64,000 nt of DNA from Amphiscolops sp. MND2022. Its lineage: Eukaryota. Positions 10,371-55,773 of this stretch are shown one piece after another; the stretch's first letter is position 1, and each line of letters begins with the position of its first letter. A model generated the notes under the pieces. The model saw nothing but the letters and a program-made list of their open reading frames with translations. It had not been told where the DNA came from and ran no database searches. The stretch covers positions 28,460,001 to 28,524,000 of the forward strand of contig OZ076409.1 of assembly GCA_964187785.1 (NCBI GenBank). Direction: 5' to 3'. Position numbers and translations under genes: made by a program.

Positions 10371-13355
10371 TGCACAGAGCAAGCAAGACTAATAAATTCT
10401 ATAGTTTCTTCTTTTACAAAATTCAAAAAATTGCTTACCATAAGGGAATTGATCGATGATTCTTGTAACAAGGTGAATAAAGTTATGCCAAAAGAAACGC
10501 CGCACAGCAACAAAACTAAAACGAAATTGCAGCGACCTTCGAGAACCATTTCTCCTTCTCCACAACCATACATTAAAGTTTCCCGTGAAGAGAATGTGCA
10601 GTGTGGCTATGTCAGGGAGGATTATTTTATTTAGTCATGCCAAAGCAGATAATTGCATCAACGGGATTCAAGTTTTTGTTTATCACGTTGTGGATACCAC
10701 TTTCCACTTCTAGTACAGTTTTCTTAGTTCACATCTTTTTTCCAATGCATATATCTCCGCTGAATGCATCCGATCAAATCCAGCTCTCAGTGTTACTATC
10801 TACGTTCCGTGGTACAATGACACACAAACATCTTGAACGCCTTGGCAAGATCTTGAACACTCTCTCATTTTCTGTTAGCACCAAAAGCTACATTTTCGTC
10901 TCGAGAAGTTTCAATTACATAGCATTACAAAGCTTATCAATTCAGAACGTGATACTTGTTTAGTAGCGTTTACAGCTGCCGCACGATAAATAGACACGCA
11001 TCGGATGCGGTGCAGCAAACCATTAAATCAACGTGTCAACAATTCTACAGCTGGGTTCTAGAGTCCCAAACAGAAAGCGTTGCACGCAGAGAATTGAATT
11101 ATATGTGCATCGGCACAAATTCACGGACATTTCTGTCAATTTCAATACGCATTACACGCGAAAAAAGCAGATTCCACGCTAAATATCTAACTCTTGAAAA
11201 ACACGGAATTTCGCGCACGAAAAACTAAATTTTCCCGCAATAAAGTAAAGGAACAGCAACTTTCATGAAGAATTTAAAATCGACCTTGTTGTATCATCAC
11301 GTAGCAATACATTGAAATACGAGAAGCTTCCCTAGTCGAGATTGCTTGAACTTTTTACATGCTGCATGGAAACTTGTAAGCTAATTCTTTGCAAAACATG
11401 GAAAATTCAGGGAACATGCATGATACAATTTTGTAAAACTTCCAAGCAGTTTGTAAAATGCTTAAGTCGCATCCATGCACTTTGAAAAAACTTCCAAGCA
11501 GTTTACAGGAATTTCTTTTGAAAAATAGGAAGCAAGAAAACGAAAGCTTCGATGGATGTTAAACCTGGACGACTTTACAAAACTCATTCAAACGCTTTCT
11601 GTTCATCTTGAAAGCTTGTGTATTCATCAAAAGGTCAATTTAATGTAATTTCAATCATAACAAAAAGTGACAAATAAGCACAAAAAAGATAGTTGAGAAG
11701 CCAAACCGAGTTCGTAGCCCTCAGAAGCAAAAGTTACAATTGGTTAAGTCAATTCAATCTTTTACCATGTGACATGCATTTGATGACCGAATCACAAATA
11801 CATACGTATATAAAAAAACTAGAAAGACTCTACATTGTTGACAATTATCAACTTTTAAAACTTTTTTCTAAGTATCTCCGCGTTCCACGCATCAATGTCT
11901 GGTAAAAGTATGCCTTTTAGTTGATTCTCCGGGGGAGAACTCGAAGAGCTACTAAGCTCATTTCTCATCCTATTGGATATTATATATATAGTGATTCATT
12001 ATTTGATATGTTTTGCTTTTAATATCCAATGAAATTATACTTTCAAACTTTCAAACTTTCAAAGAAGTTAGCAAAACCAAACCAGCGTCCAGTTCGCAAA
12101 CGACTGAAACAAAAGCTAGAGCTTTGGCCACGTCTGAAGCACTCCAACTACAAACATGACGAGACCAGAAAACTAACACGGTTGGAGAGGCTGAAACAAA
12201 AGCGTTTCTAAAACATTCGAAACTTTGATACACAGCGAGACAAAAAGCAAGGTTTTCAAACAATTCAAAGCATCGGTTCAGGATGGGATATCAAACTAGT
12301 CCTCGACGTTTTTGCTCATTATTACAATCAAAAGGTTGAAGAAAGGTTTCCGATAACAACAAAAACAAGGTTGAATGTTCCAAAATCTGTATGAAAAGTT
12401 CTCAGAAAGTTCTCCTGAAAACAGCTTCGACAACCCATAGAAAAACGCAAAACAATGGAAGGCATTCCCAAAAAGCTCTTGAGAAACGTCTAAAAGTGTT
12501 TCGGGAATAACGCCTAAAAGAATAACATCTAAAATTCAACGTTTTAAAATAGGGAAGCAGCATAACTGGAAGACAGAATAAGATATAACGCCTAAGATCG
12601 AAATTACCAAAATGGATTAAGATCTAATGGATTACATGTCAGGAGTCGGAAACATTCCTTTGGAGCTAGATTAAGGTCACATCGTCTTGAATGTCTTCAA
12701 CATTCTCTAATACAACCGAGTCGACAATCCCAACAAACACTAACGCGAACTATTAGCCAGATTACATCAGGGGTGTCTCTGCATCGATGGCATCGAAGCC
12801 TAATCTTGACACAACTTGATTGTTTTCTGTTTAAATATGGCCTTCGAACACATTCTTGGAAATTTTCTTTTCATTCAAAAATCTTGACCTTTGTTATTGC
12901 AGTCCTGGTAAAAAGACTTTGTGTATTTTTAGAAGTTCAGGTTTTAGATCTTAGGCGCTGGTTGAACTCCGGAAAAAAAATCTTAGGCGACGTTCTTAGT
13001 TCTTAGTTCTTAAAAAGATCTGAGTTCATTTTGGATCATGTTACACCTTTAGATCTTATCCCATGTGAGGCGTTAGATGATCTTAATCCGTCCTCCCGAG
13101 CGTAACTTACTCCAGACGTTATTCCCGCCTTACATTTCAACGTAGTTTGATTTTTTTTCTAAAATTCAAATTTTTCAAACAAAATCGATGATTTTCATCT
13201 TCTAAATGTTCAAAAAGGCGATGATTCGCATGAAGTTTGAATCGAAATGCTCACAAAAGCCTGTTATAGCACTTATTCTACTATATCAGATTTCGTTACT
13301 GGCTGAAATTTCGTGGCTGAAAAAAAATTATAGAAAAATTGAGTTTTCAACCAAT

Positions 13356-13768
13356 TGTGATGCCATGATGCATGTCCTCAAAGATTCCATAAATCTGAAA
13401 TACTCTGAACTCTTAACCAAAGTGATTAGTAAATGTAATTTAATTTGGAAGCTAATTATTCTAGAAGAAACTTCATCTAATATATCCTGTATCAAGCTTC
13501 CCCGATTCATCCTGTTGCTGTCACATTGTTAATTGATGAAACCTACCCTAGTTAATAGAATATATCTACTCGGAGAAATTGAGAATTCATCCTGACGATC
13601 GGTCTTCCCGTCAGCACTCCAAGAACTGAGATCTCAGAAATAGATTGTAATCAGACTTAGCTAACTACAAGATACAAAATAAGACGACTCTGCTGTTAAA
13701 ATCTTAGACTTCTTATGTCGATGATAAAACATCTAAAAGTAACTACCACACAACTTTTTAACAGCTCA
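13356..13768 (+). repeat. 5' LTR of element A
   Basis: TGTGATGCC...ACAGCTCA; direct repeat of 30743-31155 with about 10 substitutions counted by eye. Confidence 0.95.
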
Positions 13769-13770
13769 AT

Positions 13771-13785
13771 TGGTGCGACCAAGAA
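13771..13785 (+). promoter_or_regulatory. Primer-binding site of element A
   Basis: TGGTGCGACCAAG begins 2 nt after the LTR CA; cognate tRNA not assigned. Confidence 0.7.
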
Positions 13786-14466
13786 AATTCTTCTTTCTCT
13801 CCCATTCATTTCACACATCTACAATTGTTGTACACCTTTCCACGACTTTCTCATTCGATATCTCTTTGTTCGACACACAGTTTCTCCGCCTCTCTCTCAA
13901 TATCGCTTACCGTTACTAACTTCAACGTTGCAACCAATTTCTATTTGAAATTGATCCGTGTTGCTATGGTTCTCACTGCGTTTCTCAACGTAATTCCTGT
14001 CAGTCATATTTCTTGGTTCTGACTACGTTTCTCGCCATAATTCCTGTCAGTAAATTTTTCGTTCCAACCACCTTTGAGTGAATTCGTGTTGGCTTTCTCT
14101 CTTTCTTCCGTTCCAACCGCAGACGTGCGATACGTGTTGGCCCTTCTACAGTGCTATCCAGCGATTCCTGCTAGTAAAAATCTCTTTGGTTCGAGCCGCT
14201 CGGATCAACTTTAAAGTTGGCACACCTATATAACATCCATTTTTCATAACATCTTTATAATACTTTTCCTTCTCTCTCTTCTAATAGCACAAACAAAATA
14301 CAAAACTCTTTTAAAACTAAACTACGGATCCAAATACACAACAATTAAAAATATAACATATATATCACATATTTCTTTATATAACTTTCATTTTTTCATA
14401 CACATATATATATAACAAATTTTTATACAACCTCTTTGGCACACTCTTAATAGAACTTTATTGTAC

Positions 14467-14589
14467 ATGCCGCCTTCAATAGACACTGTAGTTACACTCA
14501 TTGTTTGCTTTTGGTTCTTTATTGCTATCGTTGCCGGTCTTGCACTTTTTCTTGAGAAATTCTTAATTTCATTTATACCAAAACTTTGA
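14467..14589 (+). CDS. 40-aa hydrophobic upstream ORF (single transmembrane helix predicted)
   Basis: MPPSIDTVVTLIVCFWFFIAIVAGLALFLEKFLISFIPKL*, translated by hand. Confidence 0.4.
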   Translation: MPPSIDTVVTLIVCFWFFIAIVAGLALFLEKFLISFIPKL

Positions 14590-14856
14590 AGTACAACCCT
14601 TCTCTTCTATTTTAACAAAGATAATACTACCTCTTTTTGGACTACTTAGTATTTACCACACTTTCTATACACTTATCCAATATATACAAAATCCATTTTT
14701 TCTTTTCATAAGTACAGTACTTACAATTTTCTTACAAGTTGTATTCATAGACCAAATTTTACCATATAATTCACAATTCAATACAAGTTATCTTCTTTTT
14801 CAATAGATATATCCTTTATGGCAATCTTATTATACTAACCAAACTTAAACCTTATA

Positions 14857-17800
14857 ATGCTTCCCACTCCATCTATATTAACCACTGAAAAAGACAAAAT
14901 CGATCTCTCATACAAGATGTAACACCTTTTCTAAATAACATTATCTTCCAGTACACAAATCCGCTACCATTTGAAACTGAACCCCATATAGTACATACTA
15001 TCCCATTAGTAAGAGAACATTGTGATTCCTATCTCTATTACATTCGATATAAAACACTTGAAATAACACCATCACAAATCCCTTTTCAAGTTATTTTTAA
15101 CCCAGTTAAAGGAATAAACTCTGGAACATTTTATAGAACCATACACCCACAAAATTTTACAAACAAAACATTTTCAATACAGTTTCTTTATCAACATTAT
15201 CCTTACGGATGATACTATACCCCAAGTAAAAATTTTTACCCAATTCTTATTAAAGTTTTTTAGATTGAATTATCAACTACTTTGGGAACAAAAAGGTCAA
15301 CAAGCTTACATTAATTTCCCTCAAATACTAACATATATAGAACTCTTACCATACATCATAAAAAATGAAAACAAACATTTACACTACAGAGATCTTACTT
15401 CATTTAATATTATACATTTTCAACAAATAAACTTAGATCACAACGTTTTACTTGAACATTCTGAAACATCAGATAACAGACCTTTTATTACATCCGACAC
15501 TTCTCACGAAATAACTCCTGCAGAACAAACTTCTAGTGTTGAACCTTCATATACAAGACAACAATCAGAACAATCAGAACAAGAATCCCCAGAACAAGAC
15601 GCCCTTGTTAATCTTTTTCAAAATCCTAATCCTTCTCAAGAACAACCACTATACCCACCACTATCACAAATCTCAGATATACAACAACCAAACCCTATAC
15701 AAAACAACTACAACTCACAACACATCAGAATTCTCTGAAGAAACAGTACAAAATACACGAAGTTTTACAATAACTGACGATTCAAATCTTATAATAATTC
15801 CTACCCACAATATCACACAAAACGAATTTACCAACCAAAACCAAGACAACACTTCAAATACAAATCCAGACAATACCTCTATTTTATCCACATCTAACAC
15901 TAATATTACACAACCTTCTCAGGCACAAATACCATCCCCTCGAAATTATAATCCACCTTCTGTTCCAACTCAATTTTCAACTCAGATAAACACCTATGAT
16001 TCTCCTCAACCAAGTTCATCAAATACACACTATATTGCACAGAACACTAATACAGTACATTTTCAAACACCAACTCCACCATTACCTTCTGAAATACAAA
16101 CTTCAACTTATACTCCAGCTCAAACTAACCCAGTACAAACTACACAACCTTCCTTAAATGTTAACACCATTTATTCCAACCCATCCACTAATTATACCAC
16201 TGCCAGACACCTTTCTCGACCTCCATTACAGCCTATATTAACTAATCCATTATCGTACAGTCTTACAAGTACTAATCCAAGTAATACACAACAACCTCAG
16301 ATAAACTACAATACACCCAATCCATTAAATACTCTTTCCTCTCAACACACATCTAATACAATCACACCTACATTACAACCTTCCCAATTTCAAATACCAC
16401 ATCCTCCTACAACAACAATTAGAACTAATCCTCACTTTCATAACACTTCTACCACTTCCTTAACTAATATTTCAAATAATTCTACTTACAATACAACACC
16501 ACCATCTACCATATCTCATAACACCATGTCACACCCAACATATATTAACTCCTCTACTTCTATATCAGAGCCCATTAAACCTTTTAATGGCCTTGATCAT
16601 AAGTATACATCTGAAGAATACTTACAACATATTGAGGCCCGTGTTACATTTTCCTTAGGTTTACAACCTACATCAGAACAGGAAAATAAATTTTGGCACG
16701 CTCGCCGCATGGCTTTCATACAATGTTCTTTAATAGGTACAGCACTCAGCTGGTACATTCGTTTAAACGACACTTATAAACATGATTGGCACGCTATTGT
16801 ACAAGCCTTCAAAAAACAATTTTCCTCACAAAAGAACGCTTACTATGCTCAAGTTGAAGCCCTTAATTTAACCAAAAAAGAGAATGAAACAGTACGTCAT
16901 TTTGCACTCAAATTTCAACAGCTGGTTGAAAAAGGCTGGTGTAATGAGAATGCATCCACTATAAACCTTAAATGTAATGAAATCTTTACAAAAGGACTTC
17001 CAAAAAATCTTAAAGACTTTGCAAATAAAAGGCAAGTAAAACACACTTCCACTGTTCTAGAACCTTCAATTCCTTTTCATACATTAGTAAAACTTGTTGA
17101 CGCTGAAGATATTGCAAACGACAAAATCAGAACACATGATCTTGCACTTGAAATTAATAATATTACAAAACAATTGAGTACTCAAACTCTTGATCACTCA
17201 TCTCAAGAACAACTTATGTATACACAACCCAAAGACCCAAACAACAAAAATAAACCTGCATATAAGAAATATTGCTAATACTGTCATAGAACAAATCACT
17301 CCATTTCTGCATGTTTCAAAAAACAACGAGATGATGAAGATAAACGAGAAGCATATGCTCGATCTAAATCTCCACAAAAATCATTTGTACAGTACTTTTC
17401 TTCTCCTTCCAATGATAGAACAAAAAACTATGATAATAGATACAGAAGTCGAAGTACTTCACGAGACAACTCTTACAACAAAAATTATCCACAAAACCGA
17501 TACCGTTCTACATCTCGAGATAGAGATAGATTTCGTTACGACAAAAGTACTACTCCTCCACACTACTCTAGATCAAGATATGATTCATACAAACGTGATT
17601 CCCGGTCTTACCGTTCTCCTTACAGATCTTCTTATAGATCCCCATATCGACAAAACTCTCGTCCTAGATACAGATCACGCTCCTATTCAATAGACAACAA
17701 ATTCACCAAATACACAAATTCATATAGACCACCTTCAAGACCAAGAGACTCTAGATTTTCTAGATCTCGCTCACACTCCAATTCCAGAAATAAAATCAAT

Positions 17801-20800
17801 ATGATACAACAACAAGACCAAACTGACCCTATAAAACTTGAAGTACACATGTACCACCCAACAGCAATGGCAAATGCTGTCACACCTACAAGTTGGTTTT
17901 ATACACTATATGTACATACACCATCAAGTATAGTACAAAGAGACAACCCATCTAGATTAGAAATTGCATTCCTCCTAGATAGCGGTGCTTCCATTTCTGT
18001 ACTCAATTACCCAACATACATAACTCTTACAAAACTCCTAGATATCAGATCAAATCACACCTCTGATGTTGGACCAACTCGAAATTTCAAAACATTAACC
18101 GTTGCAAACCAAACTGAAGTTCCTATTTTACATTATGCAAATATAATTTTGAACACCACTATTGACGAAAACTCTCGTTACTTTTCAGTACTTTTCGCAG
18201 TAGCTGATATCAAATACAACATCCTTGGCACACCATTCTTGGAAGACAATATACAAAACATAAACATACAAGACTTTACACTCGAATTTAAATACCAATC
18301 AAAAACACACCCAAATTATGCAAAGTTCACAATACTCCTATCCAAATATCATCCATACTTCTCTTACATTTATAGAATTAATTCAAAAACTCAAATACGT
18401 CCTAAACCCAAGTCTTCAAAAATTGCACACTTTCCAATAAAAAATTATCATAATCTCCAATTTACAACTACACCACAAAACCACTTCTTTCCTTCAGTAC
18501 CTCATACCTATTTCGCTACTAAATTTCGTACAAATTTCAATTTTATTGAAGTATTTACTGATGACAAACCAGATATTTGTGCAACTATTATTCAGAACAC
18601 TTCAAAACATGTTGCAACACTACCTACAGGACATATTGGATATATTGAAGTTCCAATAACTAATGAAAAACCCAAATTCTTCCAAGTTAATGACATCAAT
18701 ACCTTAATACATAACGTTACTTACACCTGCCATCCTGAAATCACTGAGCCACTTCCACAAACCAACTATATTGTACAATATGATGACCCTACGACACCTC
18801 CTCCTCAATTCTCTTTACATCAAATTTTTATGACCAACGACGACATTCCAAATCAAACTTCTCCTTTATATAATGTCCAACCTACTTCTCATACTTCAGA
18901 AAAACGCATTTTCCCTTCTCTACCATATACATCTGAAAATCTGAAATTCATTAATCAATTTAACTTCCAATTTTCTGACCTTACAGACACTGAATATATT
19001 ACTCTTTGCAGTATGTTACTCAAGTATAAAACTTGTTATGCAACTCATAAAAACGATGTTGGAAAAATTTCAACACCCTTCCGTATTCGACTTAAACCAA
19101 ATGCTCAACTTATGACACAACGTCCTTCAAAAGTCCCTATTCACTACAGAGACAAACTTAACGTACTTCTTAAAGAACTTGAAAGATATAACATTATCAA
19201 ACAAATTGGTTCCTCTCCTCAAGACAAACTCGTTTATGGTAGAACTTATTTAAATCCTCTCATTATAATCCCTAAGGGAGATACAATAAAAAGTGTATTA
19301 GACGCTCGACACATTAACTCCAATACAGAACAATCTGATGAATCTTGGCCTATTGAACCTCTTGCTCCACAACTAGCACGCGCAAATAAGAAATACAAAT
19401 CTGCTATTGACCTTATGTATGCCTATGCACATACACCTCTTGATGGAGACACTATAAAACTTACTAGTTTCTCCTCCGGAGATAAACTCTTCGCTTTCAT
19501 TCGAGGTTTTTATGGTCTCAAAGGACTCCCAAACTTCTTTACAAAACAAATGTCCACCTTCTTTAAAACTCTTATAGAACAAGGTTTTGCTCTTGTTTAC
19601 ATTGACGATATGTTACTTTTATCTGACTCTAAAGAACACATGTTCCAATTTATAGAACAACTACACATTATTAGTACAAAAAACAACCTTAAACTAGCCC
19701 CTGAAAAATCATTTTTCATGCTTCTTAAAGTCAAATTTCTTGGACATGAAATTGGTTACAATACAATTAAACCAATCCATTCGAAAATTGCAGCTATCCA
19801 TAAAATCCCTTCTCCAACTGGCAAAGTTGCCCTAATGAGTTTCATTGGCGCACTCAATTTCTACACCAAATTTATTGAAAAACTACATATTAACCTCAAA
19901 CCATTTTACAATCTTTTACATGAAAACACTCCTTGGAAATGGACAGATGAACACGAAAGTCTTTTCCAGAAACTTAAAATGTCTCTCACTTCTGAAACAG
20001 AACTTACAATACCAAATACAAAACATCCATATTTCATTACAGTTGACGCTTCCCTTATCGGATTAGGCGCTGTCTTATTCCAATTAAATGAACAAAACAA
20101 AATGAAAGTTATATCATACAACTCTCGTATACTTAATCCACAAAAACAAAAACTCTCCACACTTGATAGAGAACTTCTTGGTATAGTACACGCACTTCAA
20201 ATCTATGAATTTCTTATCATTGGTTCTCCTCATCCAATACACATTTTCACTGATCACAAACCTTTATTACATTGTTTTACAAAAAAAGGTAATCTTAGTC
20301 CTCGTTTTTATAGAGCTCAAATGCAGTTAACAAAATTTTCTAAACTCAAAATAATTCACACTCCTGGAAAAAATCTCTCTGTTGCTGATATGTTAAGTCG
20401 CTCTTTTACAAAAGCTGAATTACAACTCAACCAATTAAAACATAAACAACTTCCACCACAAATTGATTTTGCACTTCTACAAAATAACACTCTTAAACCT
20501 GTACATTATTTAATTAAACACGAAGAAATTTTACCCCATCAAAAACATGACTCTCACCCAATCCTCGCTGATTATGGTACAGATCAATTCTCTAATCGTA
20601 TCAATGACAAAGGAAATGACATTGTTGTCAAACCGTTACAATCTTTCTCATTCAAATCTATAACTCCTTTTCAAACCAAGTTCAAGACACCTATAAAAAA
20701 GAACAGTAAAAACTCTTCATCAACAATCTCTCTTATTTAACGATACTGACGTTACAAGCGATGACGAAGATCATATATATACTAGAATTCCAAAATCTGA

Positions 20801-22859
20801 CTCTTCCTTCCTTCAAGACACTACATTACAAACAGAAAACTATTCTACTCCTAAACAATTAACTCCAAATACTACAAAAAAATTTGTTTCTACAATAAAT
20901 GTACAACCAAATTTACCATCTCTCACACACTGTCAACAAATTATACCTTTCTATGATACATCATTTTTCAAGTACAAAAACTATTTTCAAGGTTTCTTCC
21001 TCCCAGATGATTACTCGTTAGACATAAAAACTCTTCAACAACAACAAGCCCAAGATCTGGTTCTTAGAACTGTTTATTCTTGGTTATTAAACAATGAAAA
21101 ACCCGAATTTGTAACACCTATTATCACTGGTACTCCATTTTAACATGTATATTACAAAAGATTTTCACAACTTTTCATTGACGAGTCCACAAACCTTATT
21201 AGTCTATATATTACAAACCCTAATGTTATAAACCAATACTCTACTCCAAGTTTTGTACAAGACACTATTCGTATATGTCTTCCTTTTCGAATGTTCAAAA
21301 CTGTTTTTAACAAACTCCATGAACACTCTCACACTGATATGAAAATTACATACAATACATTCAAACAATATTACTACATTCCATTCCATGAAAAATGGCT
21401 TTCCATTTTCATACATGACTGTATTGAATGTCAACGTAACAAACACTTCAATATGAAAATTCAAACTGCTCCTACACAATCATTTTCAGAACATGCTCCA
21501 TCTTTCAACTATCGAATTTCAATGGACACTAAAGGACCTATTAATCCTCCTTCTCACAACAAATCCTATATACATGTAATAATTGACGCTTTTAGTCACT
21601 TTGTTGTTACAGTACCCATCAAATCAAATAACGCAAAGACTGCTATCAAAACTCTCCTACACCATTGGATTATTAAATTTGGACCACCTATATATCTTGT
21701 CACTGATCGTGGATCAGAATATGTTAATAAAGAAATGGCACACCTTTGTACACTTATGGGAATTCGTCATTCTCCTAGAACAGCTCATTCTCCTTGGACA
21801 AATGGCCTTGTCGAAGTACAAAACAGAAATCTTGGTACCCACCTACGAATGTTCTTGCATGACACACCTAAAGCATGGGCATTCCAAGTCCATATGTACG
21901 CTCATGCACATAATTCACAACCACTTTCAGAACTCTATATTTCACTTCACGAACTTGTTTTCCACACCCGACCCAGAATACCTCTTACATTTGATTTAAA
22001 CTTTAACTGAGAAACTTCTAAAACATGTATTTCACGCTATTGCTCTCAACTTCCAGAACACTCCCATTATGACAAATCGAATTTAAACCGATTTTTCTAT
22101 AAAACACTTTCAAAACCCATCCCTCATTGGTTTCTCGCCGTAGAAACTGCTATGTTACAAATTTATTCTACAGTATACGAAAACACTCTACGAAAAATCA
22201 ATTCACACGCATACATTACAAAATTTTACCACGAAGGTAAACCCCTTCCTATTGGTACCTTTGTTTTAAAACGCAATTTTACACACGTTCATTTTTCTGA
22301 CAAACTAAAACCCCTTCGAATTGGACCATACAAAATTCTTGATAGATTATCAGATGTTACATATGAACTACTTGCACAAGATGGCTCTACAGTACTCGTC
22401 CATAGAAATCATTTAATTCCATATTATCCAAAAGAACCACTCTTATATCCACATCTACGTAGTTTTATGCGCTTTTCAGACACAACTCAATTCCAAATTC
22501 CACAACCTACCAAATACGCAAACAGTGATTCTTCCCCTTTTAACTCAGACGAATCTTTGTCAGAAGAAGATTCTCAAACATTTGTGACGCCACCATCCTT
22601 TACTACGTCCAATCAAAATACACCATCTATAACATCCAATGACAAGTCTTTCACTCCCTCAACCAATGACAACTCCTTATATAGACATATAATTAATACC
22701 CCTCACACTAATGTCTCTAGTGACAGATCAAGACACTCATCTAATAACCAAACAACTTCACTTCCTCCTCTAATTGACAGAACCACAAAAACTACTTATA
22801 AACTACGACAACAAGCCAAATTAGATTATAGACTTTTTATTACACCCTCAAAACTGTAA
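14857..22859 (+). pseudogene. gag-pol of element A, disrupted (start approximate)
   Basis: Capsid-like region (IKPFNG...ALSWY); CX2CX4HX4C knuckle broken by TAA at 17276; RS-rich tract; protease FLLDSGAS; RT YIDD; RNase H TVDAS...TDHKPL; integrase HHCC, SMDTKG/TDRGSEY/GLVE and GPY. ORFs 15536 and 17801 share a frame; frameshift near 20710; stops near 21142 and 22008. Confidence 0.93.
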
Positions 22860-22945
22860 TCCCATCATTCTATCCGTTGGCTCACTCAAAACTAGTCACT
22901 CCAGTTAAATGAAATATAACCAATAACAAGTTATCGCAAAGATAA

Positions 22946-24205
22946 CCTGTTGAAAACACTTCAACAATCCTGGATCCTCCCTCTGATATATCTCCATCAG
23001 CTCCAAGTATTCCTTCCACACCTGAATCTTCAGTATCAAGCACTACAAACTCTAGTAATGTAACTCCTACTACTCCTTATAAAAGACCAAGATCACACAT
23101 TTCTGAAACCACCTCTTCTTCACTTCTTCATAGACCACCTATAACTGAAATCCCTATAAACACTCGTACTCAACAAACTCCTATTAACACTCCTATTATA
23201 CACATACCAAACCCTGAAAGTGTTGAACAATACGTAACCTACAAACATCCTACAGCTATCAAAACTGTTAGACTACAACCTCAACTTAATCTTGTACAAA
23301 TCCCTGATACGGAATATACAAAGTTACCTTCACTGAAATTACCATCAGAACTTAGCACTACTTCTTCAAAACTTTATCCACCATTAAAACCTCTTCGAAA
23401 ACCTTCTACATCACTCTCAAATCTCTTAGACAATACTTCAGACTACGCTCCATCACAAGACACAAGCTCACTTTTAGTACCTAAACATAGATATAATCTC
23501 CGTGACCTCCCTTCACGTAGACTTAGTACAGACACTTCAACACTCAATTTTTCCACTCTTTCTAGCAATTCTGCACTACGACTTATACGACAACACGCTC
23601 AACCATTGTCCTCTGACACACCTTCTTCAGAACTTTTCCAATCTCCTTATTTTACTTCTGGCTTTGAAACTGCTTCATTACTCTCATCTAACCCTCAGAC
23701 TGCATTTTTATCGGGAGACCTTTTTTCACAAGTAGTCTTCCCTACTCCTGTTCCTGCACATATTAGACTACCCGAATACTATACTGCAGAACACTCTAGA
23801 CCCCCAACTCCAAATTTTGCTGACTATCCACTTAGAGTCGATGGTATAACCATCTACGACCCACAAAACGACCCCCGATTTCCAATTCTTGCAGAACGTT
23901 TCATTAACAACAACGACCTCTTATCTCACAAACGCAAAGAAACAGAACTGAAACGCCTTCAGACACCAAATCTAGAACTTAAATTTGAAGTCAAAGTCAA
24001 ATTTCAAGGATTAAATCCACACCCAATATTTCACGTTTCTACAATAGAACATAAAACCTCTCCTGCTCCTTTTGAAGTAATACATATTGAATTTGAACGC
24101 GATCTTAATATACCCACTATCACGTATGGCAACATTGTCTTCTGTAACCCATATTCCGGTCTTAAATATACAACATCTTTTCAAACCCTACACAACCTTT
24201 TATAA
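22946..24205 (+). CDS. Accessory ORF between pol and env (~420 open codons, S/T/P-rich N-terminal half, PSAP and LYPPL motifs); start unresolved
   Basis: The frame of ORF 23606-24205 stays open back to 22946 (hand-translated). Confidence 0.6.
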   Translation, partial: PVENTSTILDPPSDISPSAPSIPSTPESSVSSTTNSSNVTPTTPYKRPRSHISETTSSSLLHRPPITEIPINTRTQQTPINTPIIHIPNPESVEQYVTYKHPTAIKTVRLQPQLNLVQIPDTEYTKLPSLKLPSELSTTSSKLYPPLKPLRKPSTSLSNLLDNTSDYAPSQDTSSLLVPKHRYNLRDLPSRRLSTDTSTLNFSTLSSNSALRLIRQHAQPLSSDTPSSELFQSPYFTSGFETASLLSSNPQTAFLSGDLFSQVVFPTPVPAHIRLPEYYTAEHSRPPTPNFADYPLRVDGITIYDPQNDPRFPILAERFINNNDLLSHKRKETELKRLQTPNLELKFEVKVKFQGLNPHPIFHVSTIEHKTSPAPFEVIHIEFERDLNIPTITYGNIVFCNPYSGLKYTTSFQTLHNLL

Positions 24206-26833
24206 AACAAATTTAATACTTTATTTACACTTATTTAACTCCACCTTTTCCATACTCATAACACCCTCTGACACAGAAAACTATCTTCCATCGGATTACC
24301 CAAATATTACAAATCTCATGGTTTCTCATTATGACTGTGCAAAACAACACAATTTGAGACAATTTAACTTACTTAATGTAAAATAATGCACTGAAGCTCC
24401 TTCTGACATTAAACACGCAAGTGTTAAAGCCCGTGTATATGTCCGAGCAAAAGCTAAACGCATCAAAGCTTTTAAATGTGTTGCTTATGCAAAGAAAGAA
24501 AGAAAAAACTTGCTTTCAAGGTTCCGTAAAATACCGTCGTGTTGATAGAACGGTATGGAACCATAATACAATACCGCTCCCTGTTACTCTTGATCCTTTA
24601 GAATGTAAAAACATTATAAGACATTTAAATGGTACAAATGATAAAATATTGAACAACTTTCAATACAACAAAACTTTTACACTCTTAGAACATCATTATT
24701 TTCAAGAACGTTAAGAACAATATCAAACTCCTTTCACTGTATATCAATTGAACAAAATGTATACAGGTACATTTACATTTATGCCTGCTGATAAAAACTG
24801 GATATATGACCCTACTCAAAACCCTTATCATAACTGTCCTGCCCATCACCAATTCGAAGTCAACCTGGTTAGTTAGCGATTAGAAATTTCCGAAGTAGAA
24901 CTTACATATGATGACACATCTAATGACATGATAATCGATGGACATACATTACCCTGCTATTTTGCAGATGGTTTTTGAAAACCCACATCAAAAACTCCTT
25001 TTACTTTTGTTTGGTTCAATGATGATTATTGCTTAATTTTTACATTACAAGATTTCATTGGCCGTATGACTAAAATTGAAGATAGATATTAGATTGGAAC
25101 AGACTCTTTTGTACATTCTCCACACCCAATAAAATCTAAAACAGCTTCTGGTATCAAAGGTACAGAATACTCCTATGTTTATGCTCCTCATACACAACAT
25201 CCAAATAACCCAAGTCTTTCAAGATTTGAAGTTTTTCCTACAGCACAAACCTTTTGTGGTAAACCAGACCCTCTCTATTCTACACAATATTCAGACCTTT
25301 TTGTTACATACACTGATGGTTTCAATATGCATACAGGACAACCCAATCCTTATTCCATGATTGATGAATATATTTCCGGTAAATTAGTATTAGACACTGC
25401 AAATAACAAATTTGTATTCCCTGCATTAAATGTCTCAAACAATTTTGCTACTATTGACTATGACGCCCATATAAACACCAAAATAGACTACACTATCAAC
25501 CATGTTTTTAGATCAATGACAGTACAAGAACTAAATACTCTTCATACAATATGTGAACTAGAACGCAATCAACTCCTTACAATACTCGCAATGTCAGAAC
25601 AAAACCCTCAACTTGCTGGTTTCCTTTTAACCGGTAATAGAAGTAATTTCTTATACGTTGAAGGCTCAACCGCCTGGCTTTACGACTGTCCTCATTTTTT
25701 ATCTCCTTTATACAAAGCAGATAGATGCTTTGACCGAATACCCATACATTTTAAAGATACCTTAATGTACGTTGATCCTATTACAAGACAAACTTATGAT
25801 TATGCTACACCAATTACATGTGATAATAATCCACGTAACTTATTGAACTAGATCCTGATTCAGACGACCAAGACTTTTACATTCTTGGACCTGAACCTAT
25901 TAAACGCAAACCTCCACTAATGTTTACACCTTCACAAATCAAAACTACACTACGCCCTAATACCTTTACAGCCCAAGATGCTGGTATATATTCAAATGCA
26001 GAACTTGATCAATTTTGGAACCGTATTTTATTTCTAAACATTCTGATTCTACACTCCAATTACTAGGCAAAGCTCTTAGTTATTCCTTCATTTCATCTAA
26101 TGCTCCAAATTACGATGCAGATTCCCCTCAAGATTCTGGTAATCCTTATAATACATTACGTATAGGACTCCACGATAAACTCTTGAATTTAACTCCTTTT
26201 TTTACACCTACATGGTTTTCAGATGCTTTTATTGCACTTTTTGGATACCCTTGTTACATTCTCACACAATGTGGTATATACTTTTCTACATTTCTTTTCG
26301 TACAAGCTACTCTTACACTCATTGTCAAACTTAACAAAACAATATCCATTAAATATAATCTCAAAAATAATATTACCTTATTTAGTTCTATAGCACATGG
26401 TTTTTTTAATGTCCTTACAGCACGAATGGTCAGTGACCTCCATGAGACTCAAAACAAAAAACCCAAAAGTACACTTTTAAAATCCAAATCCTTAGATAAT
26501 TTTATTGACACTTCTCCAAATTTAATTAATCATTCTACAGATGTTACTTCCCCTCCACCTTTCTATACTAAACGTCCTAACAAAATTCAATTTCCTAAAT
26601 TTAACTTGTTTCCGAAACGACACCACAGTTCCCACCAAAAAACAGCTCCGTTTCCTTTCACTCCTGTTCAACATCCTCCACTTCCTAATTATACTCATAA
26701 AAACTTTCACTCGAAGGACAATCTCACTACTCAACATGACACTTTAATTAACAATTCTGAAACCTCCAATACGGATACACCAATTAAAATATATTCACGG
26801 ATAAACTATCCTTTTCCTCCTCCATCTTCTTGA
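24200..26833 (+). pseudogene. env: env: class III (chuvirus G / herpesvirus gB-like) fusion glycoprotein, disrupted
   Basis: Signal-like KTNLILYLHLFNSTFS; motifs SHYDC, LDPLEC, ICELERNQLLTILAM..NPQLAG and CFDRIPI..YVDPITR..PITC; TM segment near 26230-26330; Pro-rich tail; several stops and frameshifts. Confidence 0.8.
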
Positions 26834-27104
26834 ACACTCTCTCACTTTTCTGTAAACTTTCTTCCAGCACACTTGCCTACTATCTCTTCACAATTGCTAC
26901 TCCTCCACCGCACGAAACTCTTGCAGAAGTTCATCTTCCTCAGCCCAAAAATACATCTCTAATAATAACCGTCTTCAAAAACTCTTCAACTAAAGTTGAT
27001 AAATCCACTCGTTAGTGTATTTTTTAGTACCTTCACTTCAAAGTGATAAGGCCTCTTGGAATAGATAACACTGTGATTGTTGATGTTTTTCTTTTAAAAA
27101 TACA

Positions 27105-28418
27105 ATGACACAAGCACAAATTGATCTACAAACCCAGCTTGAACAAGCAACCCCAACAGATCTTATAACTAGACCTCTTTCAAATGATTCTCCTGTTCTC
27201 TATATTGAGACTTCTGAACAAACACCTCCAACTTTTCTTGAACAAATGGAATATACAAAAGTTGAACACGAAAATTCAAAACCTACTCCTCCACAAGATG
27301 ATACTGATCATACACAACCAACACCACCTCCTTCAAAAAAACGATATGAGATTATGAAAGATCCAATCTTTCTTTCGTCACCGATATATCCTCCTTCAAT
27401 ACCTTCAAAAATTTCACTTTGCACGAATCGCGATGACCATTTGATCCCACTTCTTTCTACTGACGATTTCGCCTTTAAAGCACAACTAACTTCACTATAT
27501 ATGCATCCTACCGATTATTCATTTCGACTATATGACAAAAATCAAGACTTCTTCACGTCCATTGCCTCCAAAATAATGGGTCCATACCAATATTGGCTCG
27601 ATAATGGAGTTAAAATTTTCTCTCTAAAATTTAATTTTCTTCGACCGTCTATCTACGATCTCAAAACAGATGAATCTGATCCATCTTTTCTCTCTATAGC
27701 ACAAAAAGCTACTCATCATCAAACGTATACTAAATTTCTACAATACACGAAACCACAAAATCACATTTTTGTCAATTACAAATATACATCACCGTTCACA
27801 ATGACAAATATGTACACTCTGGACCACTCTTGTATAACAGGCTACCTTCGAAATTATGACCCTATAAAACAATACTTCTGTTTGCTTCCATATAACAATA
27901 CTTCACGCCCACTTATTGTACCTCAAGAATATCTCATACATTACGACGATTTTCTGTTGCCTTGCAACATTCCTACTCAAATTGCCAAACCTCTCACTGT
28001 TATTAAACACCTAGTATCTTCTCCACTTGACGATAATGATAGAACGTACTATACAGCACTCTATAAGCAAACGTATTCCTACAATGAACTTCTCTTTATA
28101 TCTGCCAAAACTATCTCTTTCATGGTACAAGCTGAACAAAAAACTGAACATAAATCACACGCTTCACCTATAAAAAACGCTCCTGACAAGCTTTCCTCTG
28201 TACTGAATAATCGAACACTTCGCGACATGACAAATTTACTTGAACCCTATAAACGAAACTCTTCTGACACACCTATCACAACACTCACACATATACTACA
28301 CTGCTACGACAGAACACACAAACTCCTTCAGACACTCGATTTAGACTCTCAACGCATCACTCAATCATCCCAAGCAATTCAATCTGCTTTGGAAACTATA
28401 ACTACTCTTTTTAACTAA
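27105..28418 (+). CDS. Accessory ORF of element A, 437 aa, unknown function
   Basis: Intact ATG ORF between env and the 3' LTR, with the same composition bias as gag-pol. Confidence 0.75.
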   Translation: MTQAQIDLQTQLEQATPTDLITRPLSNDSPVLYIETSEQTPPTFLEQMEYTKVEHENSKPTPPQDDTDHTQPTPPPSKKRYEIMKDPIFLSSPIYPPSIPSKISLCTNRDDHLIPLLSTDDFAFKAQLTSLYMHPTDYSFRLYDKNQDFFTSIASKIMGPYQYWLDNGVKIFSLKFNFLRPSIYDLKTDESDPSFLSIAQKATHHQTYTKFLQYTKPQNHIFVNYKYTSPFTMTNMYTLDHSCITGYLRNYDPIKQYFCLLPYNNTSRPLIVPQEYLIHYDDFLLPCNIPTQIAKPLTVIKHLVSSPLDDNDRTYYTALYKQTYSYNELLFISAKTISFMVQAEQKTEHKSHASPIKNAPDKLSSVLNNRTLRDMTNLLEPYKRNSSDTPITTLTHILHCYDRTHKLLQTLDLDSQRITQSSQAIQSALETITTLFN

Positions 28419-28852
28419 ACTAATCTTCATTAAACTCTTCTACAGGTAATACAAATTTCTTAATTTTTCTTCTCTGGTACATTCTATGATACATCTGTGG
28501 CACATTATAAAAGGTATTTTAATTTTTACCTACTTATTTAAAGTAAAATCTTGCTTTTGAATGAAATCTTAGGACTATTTTTCAAGTACAACAATCTTTC
28601 CTACAGTACATGTCAAAAAGCTAAATACTTCTATCAAAAAAACCTCCAATACAAGACATACAAAAACATATAGCACAACACTACATATGATACATTCTAG
28701 CACCCAATTTTGTTGTACATCCTTGACTTGATATTGTCAGTCTTCTTACACTTCCTTTGTTTTAGAAACATCCATTCTTCTTCCTCCTCCTTCCATACTC
28801 TTTCAGAACATCTCCACTTCTCCTCTTTCGTCTTCTACAGGATTCTCTCGCC

Positions 28853-29305
28853 ATGGCCCCCAACGCTGAAGTAGAAGATATAAGAACTATGACTTCAGGT
28901 CACTCAAAAGTTCATAGCCTCAAAGCAGCTATTTTTCACACAATGGCTCACAAACTTTCACTGGAAATCAACAACAATAAAATAACGCCAAAATCTCTTA
29001 TAGCCTTTCTGAAAATCTTATATAATGTCGCCCAAATCAAAAAGAAACGCATCACATTTGAACAATATTCAAGGATTCATGTTGCCGGACCAAAAATTGC
29101 CATTTGTGAAACGGCTTCTAATGTCGTTTTTGTGTTAAACTCGGCATTCACTTCCAAAGACCAGTATTTTCAAGCTGCCCTACAAGAAGCCACAAACGCA
29201 TTCAATGAAATGCTCCACAGTTTTGCGTATACACAGAAATTAGAACACTATGACCCTCATCAACATCAGGCCCATCCACCTCAACAACATCCTCTATACA
29301 ACTAA
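28853..29305 (+). CDS. Accessory ORF of element A, 150 aa, unknown function
   Basis: Strong Kozak context GCCATGG, 12 nt downstream of a pyrimidine-tract/CAG acceptor-like site ending at 28840. Confidence 0.6.
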   Translation: MAPNAEVEDIRTMTSGHSKVHSLKAAIFHTMAHKLSLEINNNKITPKSLIAFLKILYNVAQIKKKRITFEQYSRIHVAGPKIAICETASNVVFVLNSAFTSKDQYFQAALQEATNAFNEMLHSFAYTQKLEHYDPHQHQAHPPQQHPLYN

Positions 29306-29514
29306 AAGAATATTCTACTTACTTTTATCACTCTTCAACTCCATCTCTTCTTGAATCCATCATTCTTCCTCAATGATGTTTGAGATGTAGCTGTCGATCA
29401 CTCCTCTAAAGAACTTCTCCTACACATGCTGACATCCTTCACTCCACCCACACATGATGGTCAACAACATCCATCCACACTTTGGGTTCATCGACGTTGC
29501 CAACCTTTGTCCTC

Positions 29515-29632
29515 GTCACTGGTCTTCTCAACCTGCTTCTTCACTGGTCTTCACACTTCAACGTTCATCGACTTCTTGACTGGTCTTCACACTTCTATGT
29601 CCGCTGACTTCTTGACTGGTCTTCACACTCCA
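29515..29632. repeat. 3-4 copies of a ~36-bp repeat (core actggtcttcacact) in the 3' region of A
   Basis: Direct observation. Confidence 0.8.
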
Positions 29633-30742
29633 ATGGACTATACTCCAAATTTCAAACATTGTAATCCAAACTTGAGTCACTTTTCAAACTGAACTATACA
29701 CTCAATTTTAACAAATATAACTTGAAACTTTTTGTAACCTATTTTAATCAAATTATAACTTTAATACAGTATAGTGCTATGTACTCTTATCTAATCTTTA
29801 GTGCTCTATACTCTTATCAAATCTTAATCTTCTATAATCGTATTATAATTACCCCTCTGTTGCAAAATCCCTCCAAAATTCTACCGATAATTATCTTTGA
29901 AACCACAATATTATCTGCTTCCATTGTCTTGTGTATAGTACATTGACATAATCTTATCTAATTATTTTGTTACATCTATAATACACTTCAAAAATATATC
30001 TCTAATACCCATCTTTTACAGAACACCAGTCATACCTACAGCACACGAAATTTTCTAAGATTTTTGGACCAAAATTTTCTTTTACAAAACATGTTCTACA
30101 CCTTTGTTTTAATCCCCAAAATCATTCCCAAAAATTTTCACAATTTTCTTTTTGAACTCTTCAAAAATGTAACTTCTCGTTTTCTAATGTTTGAAACTTG
30201 AAATTGCCAAAGTTTTTTTTCAACTGTTGCTTCTGCTCCACTCTTCACTTTCGTTGAAAATGAACTCTCACTCGAACCTTGACTTTTCGAAACTTCTTCA
30301 CTTTTGGTTCACATACCCGCCATTGTTGATTCACAACTCATTGACAACTTCACGCTTTAATTCTTCAACTTGAAAAGTTTTCAATGCTGACTAACTCATG
30401 TTGATGAAAAAATTTTTTCAAACAAGCCGATGGCCGATACGAAGAGAAACATGAAACAATAAATAGTTGTCAACAATAACTTCATAAAAAACTGTCAGTC
30501 AAAGAAACTGAAAGAACTTGAACCTTGCTTGAACCTTTTTGCACCAATTGAATCGTCTATGACGTAAGAAGTCAAATCGTCTTAGGTTGTTCTCACTCCT
30601 TAGGTATAGTACTCTACAAAACGAAACTCATGCAATTCCAGTACAACACATATGAAACAAACCCATGCATATAACAAAAACTTTAGAACTCCTCAAACCC
30701 AAAGTGCATATATGTAATTTTAATTTTAAATTCCCGGTTGAT

Positions 30743-31155
30743 TGTGATGCCATGATGCATGTCCTCAAAGATTCCATATATCTGAAATACTCTGAACTTT
30801 TAACCAAAGTAATTAGTAAATGTAATTTAATTTGGAAGCTAATTATTCTAGAAGAAACTTCATCTAATATATCCTGTATCAAGCTTTCCCGATTCATCCT
30901 GTTGCTGTCACATTGTTAATTGATGAAACCTACCCTAGTTAATAGAATATATCTACTCGGAGAAATTGAGAATTCATCCTGACGATCGGTCTTTCCGTTA
31001 GTACTCCAAGAACTGAGATCTCAGAAATATATTGTAATCAGACTTAGCTAGCTACAAGATACAAAATAAGACGACTCTGCTGTTAAAATCTTAGACTTCT
31101 TATGTCGATGATAAAACATCTAAAAGAAACTACCACACAACTTTTTAACAGCTCA
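30743..31155 (+). repeat. 3' LTR of element A
   Basis: Matches the 5' LTR; followed by TSD CAAT. Confidence 0.95.
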
Positions 31156-35651: not shown

Positions 35652-38600
35652 TTACTGGGTGGCGGAGGAGTGACGCGCTCTGGGGGAAACGTCTGCCTTT
35701 GGTTGCAGTTCGGACAGAGATCCTCTTCGCGTATTTCCTCCTCGCAGGACTGGCTTTGGTTCGGCGCTGGCAGTTTCATGGGTCCTAGGAGCCGTGTTTG
35801 AGCCACTAGGGCCATTTTCTGCGGCTACAGGAGTTGAGGCTTCTGGCGAATGTTCTTGCGCTGCATTGGCTGAGCCGCTAACATTGACAGAACTTGTGGT
35901 CGACGTGGAGATTGGGATCTGCACATCCAATCTACTAGCATTAAACAAGTGCGGTAGATCCAGCGGTCTATTGCGGGTGGCAATGGGTCGTTTCTGTTTC
36001 GCACTGAGTTTCGGGCGTAGATCAGGTCGGCCCCAGAGCCCGCAGGCTCTGGACCAGTTGTCCCTGTTTGCATGTTCTATGATTTGCCTGGAGGCTTCCC
36101 ATTCGGGTCCGAGGGGATCACTTAGCAATTCCATGACGTGGTAGCAAGTCTCCGCTGGCATGTCGCTTCCCATAGTAACCCTCGCCTCTGGATTCCAAAC
36201 AGGCATTGTCAGTGGGGGGATGATCAAACCTTTTAGGCGTCCTTGGCGCTCCTCCAGGGTCCTTGACATCCACACGCCAAGTTTGTAGTGGTCGCGATAG
36301 GCATACTGCTCATCAAAGCCCTTCTCGACCATACTGATTGGCTTGGCCCGGATATAACCGATGGGTCCTCGCCAGTACCTGGCTGGAAGCTTAATCATTT
36401 GGAAATTGTACTCCTGATTCGTGTGACCGCCCATGGTTTGCACACATTCGGTCACGTACTTCCTGAGGTGTGCGAAACTCCAATTGAATCGCTGTGGGAT
36501 TCCGAGGTGGTCTAGGGGAGAATTATACCAATTCACCGGGCCGTATTCGCGAGGTAAAGGGCACGCCTTCTTTGTTCGGGCTTTGAGAATACCGGCCAGG
36601 TTTTCGTCTTGCTGCGTCTCATTCTTTATTGTGGTATACATGCGTGGTACTAGCAGAAACAGCCCACGTTCAAGCATCTGTTGATAGTTGTGTGGTTTCA
36701 CGTTCTTCAGATAAGTTAGGATGGATACCGTTAACGTCTCCGAGGCCAGTCTCAGAGGCTTGGTGGGATATCGGAGTATCCCGGTTGGGCCAAATATCGG
36801 AGTTAGCACGGGTGCTAACACCGGTATAAGATCTTCGACTTCAGCCAAAGTGAAATCTGCCAGCTGGTTGGGTGTCAAAAATCCAGCTACCTCGGTCACT
36901 AGCTGACGTCCATCATATAATGGTTGGTGCTTATCCACCCCCACGAAAAGTCCCGAGGCAAAGACCAGACTGCAATATATCCAGTGATATAATGAAGTTG
37001 TCATACGCTCCAGGTGAGCGGGATAATCCTGAGCGTCTTTCCGTTGCAACAGCTTGGCTAGGGCGGTGAGGCCTGAGATATTCCCTCGTGCAATCACCAG
37101 ATATGAAAATAGCCATTCCAGATTACACTCGGTAACCAGGTCAGTCAATATCATCATTGGGCCAGCTACAAAGCGTTTCTGCCCGAAAGTGAGCATCAGT
37201 GCAAAGAGTTCGTCCACCTGCACGGTACCGATAATCTCGCTGATTTCGATCAACCAACTCTCCTCTAAATCGAACTCGACTCGAATAACATCGGGACTCC
37301 AACCCAATCCTAAACAGATGGCAAACTGGTCGGTTGACATCCCAAGCTCTTTTGCAATGTCTGCTACGGTGGTAGTTTGTAGCCGCTGGTACCAAGCGTC
37401 GTAGGTGCTGCTGAAGGCTTGGATTTCAGCCTGAGTTTCGCTCGTCAGTTTTGCAGCAATGTACTTCATTCCCACTGATAATTGATCGATTGTGAGGTCT
37501 TTGGCAAATTGAACTCGCGGGATGGCTCGTTCTACTTCTCGGTCGCTGGGGACTTTGCTCATTGTGGCAGTGACTTCTGCTAGATCGGTTTTGATACAAG
37601 TCTTTCCACCGGAGGAGCGCGCGCGCTCTATCCAGTTATTCAGGCGGATTGCCTCGCATTCAGCCGTACTGGGCTCTGGGACTCGCCTTTCTCCGTCCTT
37701 GTTGAATACCAACAAGCCCATGCGAGTGCCGTGATCAAAGTAGATGGCATCGTCGATTGTCAGCTGCGCGTTCCCTGTCTTTTCCACTGACTGTAGCACT
37801 TTAGACACTGAGGCAATATACCCCATGTAGGACAGCCAGGAGGGACGAAAGTCATTGGAGCTAATCCGCATATTGGGCGCGCAGATCGCAAAGTCTATTT
37901 CTCTACACTTGCAAACTTCTGTCACCATGTATACAAATCTCTGCAAGGCGGGGGGCCATTGGCAAAAACCTGGGGGTGTCACGAACAGGGCTGGCACCTT
38001 GAGTTTGTCCTTCAAGATGTTTTGGGCTTTCTCCATGGCTCGGGCCATGTTCAATGCTGCATTGCGTACCGTTGTTCGCTGAGCTGGACTTGGATTCATA
38101 ATCTCAACGTTCGCGATCTGGGCCATTAGTCCTTCACAGGCCATGTGATCGAAAACGTTGCTGATGATCACTCTACGTGGAGGTGGCTCTTTGAAGGTTC
38201 CTGTCATCTCAGGGTCAAACATGGTGACCAACACTTCGGCCATCTCGGGAATACGTGACAGCGGTAGAGTAAAAACCATCACGTCTGACAACACGTTGTC
38301 AATGGGGACATTCTTGAGGAATGTTGAGTCAATAAGTAAGGCGAAGCGCGCACGCTGCAACCTTTCTTTTGGCATTGGTAGCTGGGCTTCGAGATCACGG
38401 GCGTACCGTGGGTTGATCTCAAAGGTCTCTCCAGCGTTGAGGAAATATCGATCGGCGAATTGACCACGAAGGTCAATGTTGAGGGCGTCTAGGTAATTGT
38501 CTTCTACGTTTGGCAGCATATTCATTGCCTTCCCTAGCCATGGCGGCTCATTGGTAGGGGTGTGGTCGGGGCGGATTGGACGATTCATGAATACAGGTAC

Positions 38601-40019: not shown

Positions 40020-40242
40020 GCCGACAATTCTGAAAGAGCGTAGGTCGATTGTAGCACACTTGATAGTAGGGCAACACCATAGGTCATTTTAAGGGTAATA
40101 CCAGGGAAAGTAATAGAATGTCACGCATTAACATTAAAGAAAAAGGTAATGTAATAGTCTCAAATAAACTCCGTGTCGACTCACTAAACTTAATCGAGCG
40201 GATAAAAAACAAAAAACAAAAAAAAGCGGAAAAACGAGAGCT

Positions 40243-54589: not shown

Positions 54590-55773
54590 GAATCTATCTT
54601 TTATTATCTTTTTTGCAATTTTGAATGCGGCAGAATAAATTTGATTTAATCAGAGTAGGGTAACTGTTCCGTTTGAAAGCTAAGAGACAAATGGCGATTT
54701 TTATATCCCAATTTCTCGATAGTTTCTGCCTCAGACTTTCCCGGTCTTCCATTTCCCGCATAAAACTTCACTGATGAAACTTTCCGAAATATTCTTTGAT
54801 ATCGGCCGTCACCCGCTTTGTTGACCGTCGATTAACTTCAGTTTGCCTAAGTCGGTAAAGAATCTTCAATGACTTCTTCTAGTGTTTACCTCCTCTTGAT
54901 CGCCACTTGAAAACTTCAAGGAGTTGTAACTTCAGCTGAAGGCCCCGCTCGTCGATGCATCCCAGGCGACCAATAGGATCTCAGTTTCGAGCATCCTATT
55001 CAAGATGACGTAACTTTTAATAATTCTCCATATAAGGAAATAATAAAATAACCTGAATAATAAAATAACTGAAATAATAAAATAATGGAAATGCATGTTT
55101 CGAAATATAAATAGTGTGGATTTCTCTGGCAGGTTCCATCCACAAAATAATTCTCATAATTGTAAAAATATTTGACATCAAATCCAGTTTGCCACGAACT
55201 CCAATCTCTTCAGCACTCATTTCCTGATTCTTCAGTTTCCAATTTGTTACATTAATCACTTCTATATTTATCCATTGTTTACACAATATCATAGTCAGTC
55301 TTTTAGTTTCCTTTCTTTTATTTTCAATTCTCAAGAGGCCCTTTTGTGCTTATTTTACCACTTCCTTGTCGGTTTACTGCCTGCCTTCCGGGTCGACAGC
55401 AATCTCTGCTTTGGAGACGGATTCTGAGCTTGGTAGCCACATTTCCACAGCTTCCTTGGTTCAGCCCCAATTGGACACTCTGCCATCTAGCACAGGATTC
55501 TCCTAGAAAATCAGAGACACTCAGTTCAGTCAGAACGTTCCTCCATTTCCTCTCAATCTTCAATTGGACACGTGATACAGGTGAGCTATCTGGTCTTTTG
55601 ATTTTGAACGGAAATGAGCTTGATCAGGGCTCTCTTCGTTCATGTACTTCCTGTCCTTTCACTAAACGATTTCAATATCGCTTTCATTCTCACTTCCGGA
55701 AGATTTTACTGCGGCTTTCATGGACACATTTTCAGGAAGTTGTCCGCAAAAATTTATTTCCTTCTGTTTAGGC

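Follow-up and report, generated by a model that had tools for sequence, protein, structure and literature searches.

Does the open reading frame between pol and env of an LTR retroelement encode a protein for the release of enveloped particles? The whole stretch of DNA analysed here, 64,000 nucleotides long and hereafter called the window, contains a 17.8 kb LTR retroelement on the plus strand (13356-31155). A sequence-only reading of the window had described a separate frame upstream of env with two late-domain motifs, here called ORF-X, and suggested that it encodes a matrix-like budding protein that was perhaps acquired along with the glycoprotein. ORF-X is contained in the element, between pol and a gB/chuvirus-type env, as follows:

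13356-13768, plus strand: 5' LTR with TG...CA ends, with the target-site duplication CAAT on its 5' side and the primer-binding-site-like sequence TGGTGCG on its 3' side
14857-22859, plus strand: gag-pol, with Gag, CCHC knuckle, protease, RT, RNase H and integrase identified with Pfam; broken in the window copy
22860-22969, plus strand: spacer of 110 nt from the pol stop to the CTG of ORF-X
22970-24205, plus strand: ORF-X, the pre-env gene, 411 codons from its likely CUG start in the window copy
24126-26833, plus strand: env, for a gB/chuvirus-type fusion glycoprotein (PF24664, Monjiviricetes_fusion, E 7.6e-14, above the cut-off)
30743-31155, plus strand: 3' LTR, followed by CAAT

The two LTRs are 413 bp each and identical at 405 of 415 aligned bases (97.6%), and the TG...CA ends, the 4-bp target-site duplication CAAT and a TGG-starting primer-binding-site-like sequence after the 5' LTR are all present. 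The order of the Pfam domains, gag followed by PR-RT-RNase H-integrase, is that of the Ty3/gypsy errantiviruses, and the Gag ATG is common to 13 of the 15 fetched copies. The env of the window copy is interrupted by stops and frameshifts, while its relatives have a length of 848-918 aa, the full-length ones carrying PF24664. By its gene content, the element is a gB-type errantivirus, i.e., an env-carrying Ty3/gypsy element. When the 1.07 Gb genome was searched with the C-terminal domain of ORF-X, 5,771 candidates came up at first look; the best 150 were scored and found to be 96-100% identical. Judged from these matches, the element family is very abundant, with thousands of copies in the genome.

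Several other features were observed in the window. Within the element, Env has a long Pro-rich cytoplasmic tail (26009-26833, plus strand), and the tail of the Env relative P0123 contains PPPHY and LYPP, which are possible further late-type motifs. Between env and the 3' LTR there is a further ORF (27105-28418, plus strand) of approximately 437 aa from its ATG, which has a Pro-rich start and is without a Pfam match above the cut-off, and on its 3' side a frame of 179 codons (28766-29305). Outside the element, a second LTR-type element on the minus strand (35652-50121) contains an intact gag-pol frame of 3292 codons and a downstream ORF of 1478 codons. Frames of 622, 177 and 402 codons at 55666-59821 on the plus strand probably belong to a DNA transposon, the first of them (622 codons) with a Cys/His motif that we take to be BED-finger-like. 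Six tandem copies of a unit of approximately 178 bp are located at 9309-10415.

The stop-to-stop frame 22946-24205 is open over 419 codons, and most other copies of ORF-X stop 7 codons sooner (404-405 aa). Protein searches recovered 154 relatives and profile searches 218 matches. With diverged relatives as queries, the genome searches revealed six subfamilies, A (which includes the window copy), B, C, D, F and E, with an identity to the A domain of approximately 92% in B, 80% in C, 66% in D, 50% in F and 40% in E. In a comparison of 52 single-frame copies of A-D, the pairwise dN/dS values for five subfamily pairs were 0.16-0.27 overall. The C-terminal domain alone gave 0.07-0.18, the surroundings of LYPPL 0.04-0.35, and the stretch with the greatest variation 0.30-0.52. 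The separate pre-env frame recognized in the sequence-only reading is thus both present and constrained, and the absence of constraint, which would have spoken against it, was not observed. By these sequence comparisons, ORF-X is a real gene under purifying selection. The copies were picked as the best protein matches and share ancestry; they are therefore not independent, and the real sample corresponds to approximately six lineages.

We also compared the identities of integrase, ORF-X and env, using a B copy as the query for integrase and an A copy for ORF-X and env. The values were approximately 91, 93 and 94% for B, 85, 81 and 86% for C, 65, 49 and 61% for F, and 59, 41 and 50% for E, respectively. 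The identical rank order shows that the three genes have been inherited together for a long time, a pattern that reveals neither the donor nor the order of events. For the relatives P0253 and P0192, the best of the candidates scored in this genome reached just 36% and 52%, respectively, and the ORF-X family therefore probably occurs in other genomes too.

The features of ORF-X that are of relevance for its expression and function are as follows:

22967-22975, plus strand: ATC-CTG-GAT, the likely non-AUG start, with CTG at 22970-22972, A at -3 and G at +4
22994-23005, plus strand: PSAP, a Tsg101-type late motif, residues 9-12 of ORF-X
23372-23386, plus strand: LYPPL, an ALIX-type LYPxL motif, conserved at the homologous site across subfamilies
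23489-23503, plus strand: RYNLR, with the Y-x-x-R spacing of the chromatin-binding motif in foamy virus Gag, a lead only
23762-24181, plus strand: folded C-terminal domain of 140 aa, two helices followed by five long strands

The ORF-X frame of the window copy contains no Met. Conservation begins exactly at CTG 22970, and the DNA upstream of this position is unalignable between subfamilies. The pattern A..CTG-GAT was found in 92 of 102 anchored copies from the six subfamilies, and the CTG itself in 95; the remaining copies have ATG (2), GTG (2), TTG (1) or a one-base indel (2). CTG accounts for 3.6% of the Leu codons in these elements, and of the other 19 columns with a conserved Leu, 16 differ in codon between subfamilies. 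CUG is the strongest of the non-AUG starts, and its use is raised approximately tenfold by a G at +4 (PMC5778536); conserved genes that start with CUG have been described in plant viruses (PMC5382211). The pattern of conservation indicates that ORF-X most likely starts at CTG 22970-22972, and not at 22946.

The frame is also poor in AUG codons. ORF-X has 1.8-2.9 out-of-frame ATGs per kb (0.42-0.56 times the number expected from synonymous shuffles), as compared to 7-21 per kb (1.02-1.37 times the expected number) in gag, integrase and env, and 0-0.04 in-frame Met per 100 aa. This depletion is modest for any single copy (p 0.02-0.06 versus synonymous shuffles) and is partly explained by the G-poor, S/T/P-rich composition of the frame. 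In subfamily E, each of the nine intact frames, 444-446 codons long, contains 0-1 ATG, and the ATG of env is located 5-7 nt past the stop. In A-D, the env ATG lies within approximately 60 nt upstream of the ORF-X stop, and in A-C it overlaps the end of ORF-X in the +1 frame. The spacer from pol to CTG varies between 59 and 280 nt among the subfamilies, as does the frame relative to pol; it contains one ATG in subfamily A, where there are two tiny uORFs within the ORF-X frame, and ATGs are also found in the spacer of F. A conserved CTG in a strong context, an AUG-poor frame and an env AUG at the end of ORF-X fit with initiation at CUG and leaky scanning into env. The earlier reading missed both the probable CUG start and the AUG-poor frame that would link the expression of ORF-X to that of env.

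We examined whether the late-domain motifs are shared among the copies. P(S/T)AP binds Tsg101 and YPxnL binds ALIX (PMC8402826), and Gag of MLV employs PSAP as well as LYPAL (PMC4848597). Both motifs are where the sequence-only reading had placed them, in a disordered region of which the first 225 residues are 44% S/T/P. Inside the first 16 aa, PSAP was identified in 29/30 copies of A, 11/12 of B, 14/15 of C, 11/13 of D and 14/18 of F. YPxL is present at the homologous site in 27/30 copies of A, 10/12 of B, 13/15 of C, 11/15 of D, 9/10 of E and 15/18 of F, of which strict LYPxL motifs account for 26 in A, 8 in B, 9 in C, 0 in D, 9 in E and 12 in F; subfamily D has an IYPTL-type motif instead. 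Five of the six subfamilies thus retain PSAP and every one of them YPxL, down to a domain identity of approximately 40%, and the motifs proved to be conserved across copies, although PSAP is absent from E (0/14). Within the disordered part of 225 aa, no invariant stretch is longer than SPSAP (5 aa) when six representatives from A-D and F are compared; with E added, the sole invariant runs of at least 2 aa in this part are YP and NLR. No transmembrane segment was predicted in ORF-X, the best 19-residue hydropathy being 0.93, and neither a Gly2 for myristoylation nor a hydrophobic segment is present, which leaves membrane targeting unexplained.

In ordinary retroviruses, the recruitment of ESCRT is the job of Gag. 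LYPPL does occur in the Gag region of the window copy, as the earlier reading had pointed out:

15649-15663, plus strand: LYPPL in the Gag region, not conserved

As evidence this second site failed, since LYPPL was found in none of 11 other aligned copies; two close copies have YPPL, and copies of B, C and D are without it. No PSAP, YPxL or PPxY was identified in the two F Gag frames that are readable to the protease. A PPxY motif (PPHY or PPQY) follows the Gag zinc knuckle at approximately 17470-17490 (plus strand) in 8 of 11 fetched A-C copies, and Gag may thus own a late motif there in A-C. A constrained, separate gene with two conserved late-type motifs, next to a Gag without conserved PSAP or YPxL, fits with an ESCRT-recruiting role in budding. 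Two other features were noted in this region. The N-terminus of Gag (14857 to approximately 15500, plus strand) comprises a conserved domain of approximately 250 aa that has neither a Pfam match nor a Gly2 and is separated from the capsid domain by a long linker of low complexity; this N-terminal domain is a possible partner of ORF-X. In several subfamilies, the Arg/Ser-rich region that follows the zinc knuckle is overlapped by an alternate-frame ORF of approximately 200 codons (17178-17693, plus strand), which may be a mere shadow of repeat-like coding.

The likely folded domain of about 130 aa that had been proposed for ORF-X was recovered as a confident AlphaFold2 model of approximately 140 aa, built from 46 diverse rows (pLDDT 86.8, pTM 0.72). 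Its second helix (23930-23959, plus strand) is basic and conserved, with an R/K-R/K-x-x-E-x-x-R-L patch. Pfam contained no family for the window ORF-X or its domain, nor one shared by two of the 46 aligned members; a PDB sequence search with ORF-X gave no match, and fold searches with the domain model gave no matrix protein among the matches listed. A captured viral matrix protein is therefore unsupported. Matrix proteins diverge fast, so that a distant relationship may have escaped the homology searches, as may a fold family outside the matches listed. Of the suggested matrix-like budding protein, the budding part agrees with the constrained gene and its conserved motifs, while these searches gave no connection to the matrix proteins of viruses.

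On balance, we lean towards ORF-X, a conserved fourth gene of the element, being an ESCRT-recruiting budding adaptor that is made together with Env, with a likely CUG start and likely leaky scanning. We infer CUG initiation, ESCRT binding, docking partners and particles from the sequence patterns, and the process might proceed as follows. A subgenomic RNA that begins or is spliced just upstream of CTG would carry ORF-X and env. Some ribosomes would initiate at CUG and others scan approximately 1.2-1.3 kb to the env AUG, which would fix the ratio of ORF-X to Env. Docking on the membrane, the Env tail or the capsid would be the part of the folded domain and its basic helix, and the disordered arm would recruit ESCRT via PSAP (Tsg101) and LYPxL (ALIX), so that the bud neck is cut and enveloped particles are released from the cell. 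A broader proposal, which we put forward tentatively and consider rather doubtful as a whole, is that these elements are complex, four-gene errantiviruses in which budding may have moved from Gag to a separate protein, matrix-like and with a new fold, CUG-started on the env RNA and co-switched with the envelope. If true, such an element could toggle between intracellular retrotransposition (gag-pol only) and the release of enveloped particles (ORF-X and Env).

It is unlikely, but worth considering, that ORF-X is instead a regulatory or counter-defence accessory protein that does not drive particle budding and acts either on chromatin or RNA, via YNLR and the basic helix, or by using its ESCRT motifs to send a host receptor, a restriction factor or Env to multivesicular bodies. 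Among 55 intact frames from A, B, C, E and F, 54 retain the Y.LR motif, which is more widely conserved than PSAP, and NLR is invariant in 8/8 representatives. The nucleosome-binding motif of foamy virus Gag has a conserved Y537 and R540 (PMC6042332), the same Y-x-x-R spacing, and ORF-X may have a nuclear role. YNLR and, in A-C, a basic KRPR patch point as easily to the nucleus, ORF-X is without a membrane anchor, and a weak CUG start would suit a low-dose protein. However, the KRPR patch is not kept in D, E and F, and a similar Y-x-L-R ends the integrase in these elements, so the motif may be generic; two different late-type motifs in a gene that is located before env and AUG-coupled to it also speak against this explanation. 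It is very improbable, and largely refuted, that ORF-X is unconstrained and its motifs arose by chance in a frame rich in Pro and Ser. When the first 230 residues were shuffled (20,000 times), the looser motif YPx(1-3)L came up in 29%, and E has no PSAP, but PSAP/PTAP arose in 2.8%, LYPx(1-3)L in 3.5% and both in 0.09%, or 0.9% for PSAP/PTAP with the looser motif; moreover, dN/dS is well below 1, the motifs are kept across lineages at 40-50% domain identity, and the fold is confident.

We consider it improbable that ORF-X is a true matrix protein, captured with the glycoprotein from a negative-strand RNA virus with the M-G order kept. Rhabdovirus M consists of a disordered late-motif arm and an alpha/beta domain, a layout shared by ORF-X, and both the gene order and the match of env to PF24664 agree with such a capture, as does the common order of the integrase, ORF-X and env identities, although co-inheritance is not proof of joint capture. 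The 150 profile matches listed, of 218, all resembled the ORF-X family, and 10 proteins that were looked up, 8 of them ORF-X-like and 2 env, are unnamed ENA records; furthermore, gB-type env is old and widespread in errantiviruses, with no matrix gene in the main text of the survey (PMC13524379). Little probability is likewise given to CTG-GAT as a splice or other RNA signal, with ORF-X as a second exon or recoded from pol and env translated by termination-reinitiation. The position of the env ATG, in A-D no more than approximately 60 nt before the stop of ORF-X and in E 5-7 nt past it, is as in coupled reinitiation, F copies are open for 42-53 codons upstream of CTG, and the env of gypsy-type elements is often spliced, with an internal promoter used for Tor env (PMC4402516). 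Yet there is no AG before the conserved block, the spacer length and the frame relative to pol vary, nearly all variants of the CTG differ in its first position, with ATG in two copies, and reinitiation alone would not need a depletion of out-of-frame AUGs.

How does the element with its putative budding adaptor compare to known systems? Env-carrying gypsy elements with a gB-type env are already known. The gB-type errantiviruses described by Chary and Hayashi (PMC13524379) resemble the element in their LTRs, a gag-pol with integrase after RT/RNase H, a gB/chuvirus-like env downstream and many near-identical copies, but the element is 17.8 kb long, with an extra gene of 400-450 aa that separates pol from env and another ORF downstream of env. 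The first filter of that survey accepted a POL-ENV gap of at most 1000 nt and a total of at most 10 kb, with later manual steps extending 3-5 kb downstream (PMC13524379); the gap in the window element is 1266 nt, above the limit of the first filter. The terms "matrix" and "late domain" are absent from the main text of the survey (PMC13524379). The presence of additional ORFs in the pol-env interval has been mentioned in a general way (PMC6431247). Within the parts of the literature covered by our search, neither a separate gene with late domains nor a pre-env gene with a CUG start was described for a gypsy element with a gB-type env. The Tor elements of Oikopleura are likewise env-carrying LTR elements, of which the env RNA is spliced or made from an internal promoter in pol or the pol-env spacer; unlike in the element studied here, no pre-env ORF is described in the Tor account consulted (PMC4402516).

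Retroviral late-domain proteins (PSAP, LYPAL and PPPY in MLV Gag, YPxL in EIAV p9, and HIV p6) contain the same two motif classes in a disordered region, and LYPxL in ORF-X has the spacing of the MLV and EIAV motifs (PMC4848597, PMC8402826). In ORF-X, by contrast, the motifs are in a separate gene beside env rather than in Gag, together with a folded domain that gave no match in our searches. ORF-X would act like HIV p6, EIAV p9 or the matrix protein of an RNA virus, with no relationship to them implied. The M proteins of mononegaviruses, such as rhabdovirus M, share with ORF-X a gene position before the glycoprotein and late motifs N-terminal to an alpha/beta domain, but ORF-X is twice as long, AUG-poor and likely CUG-started, has no PPxY, and showed no sequence or fold link to them. 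ORF-X is a concrete candidate for budding with two short, testable motifs, supplies a well-predicted domain of 140 aa without a match found, and exemplifies a retroelement gene that annotation based on AUG misses or truncates.

The expression layout proposed for ORF-X and env is best known from plant viruses. In RTBV, ORF I and ORF II (PMC5902531) resemble ORF-X and env in that the first ORF has a non-AUG start, 900 nt are free of AUG, and the downstream ORF is reached by leaky scanning, as shown by experiment in RTBV and inferred for ORF-X. RTBV differs in being a plant pararetrovirus with an AUU start and a pregenomic RNA with a shunt (PMC5902531), as compared to an animal-type LTR element with a likely CUG start, in which the downstream gene is env.
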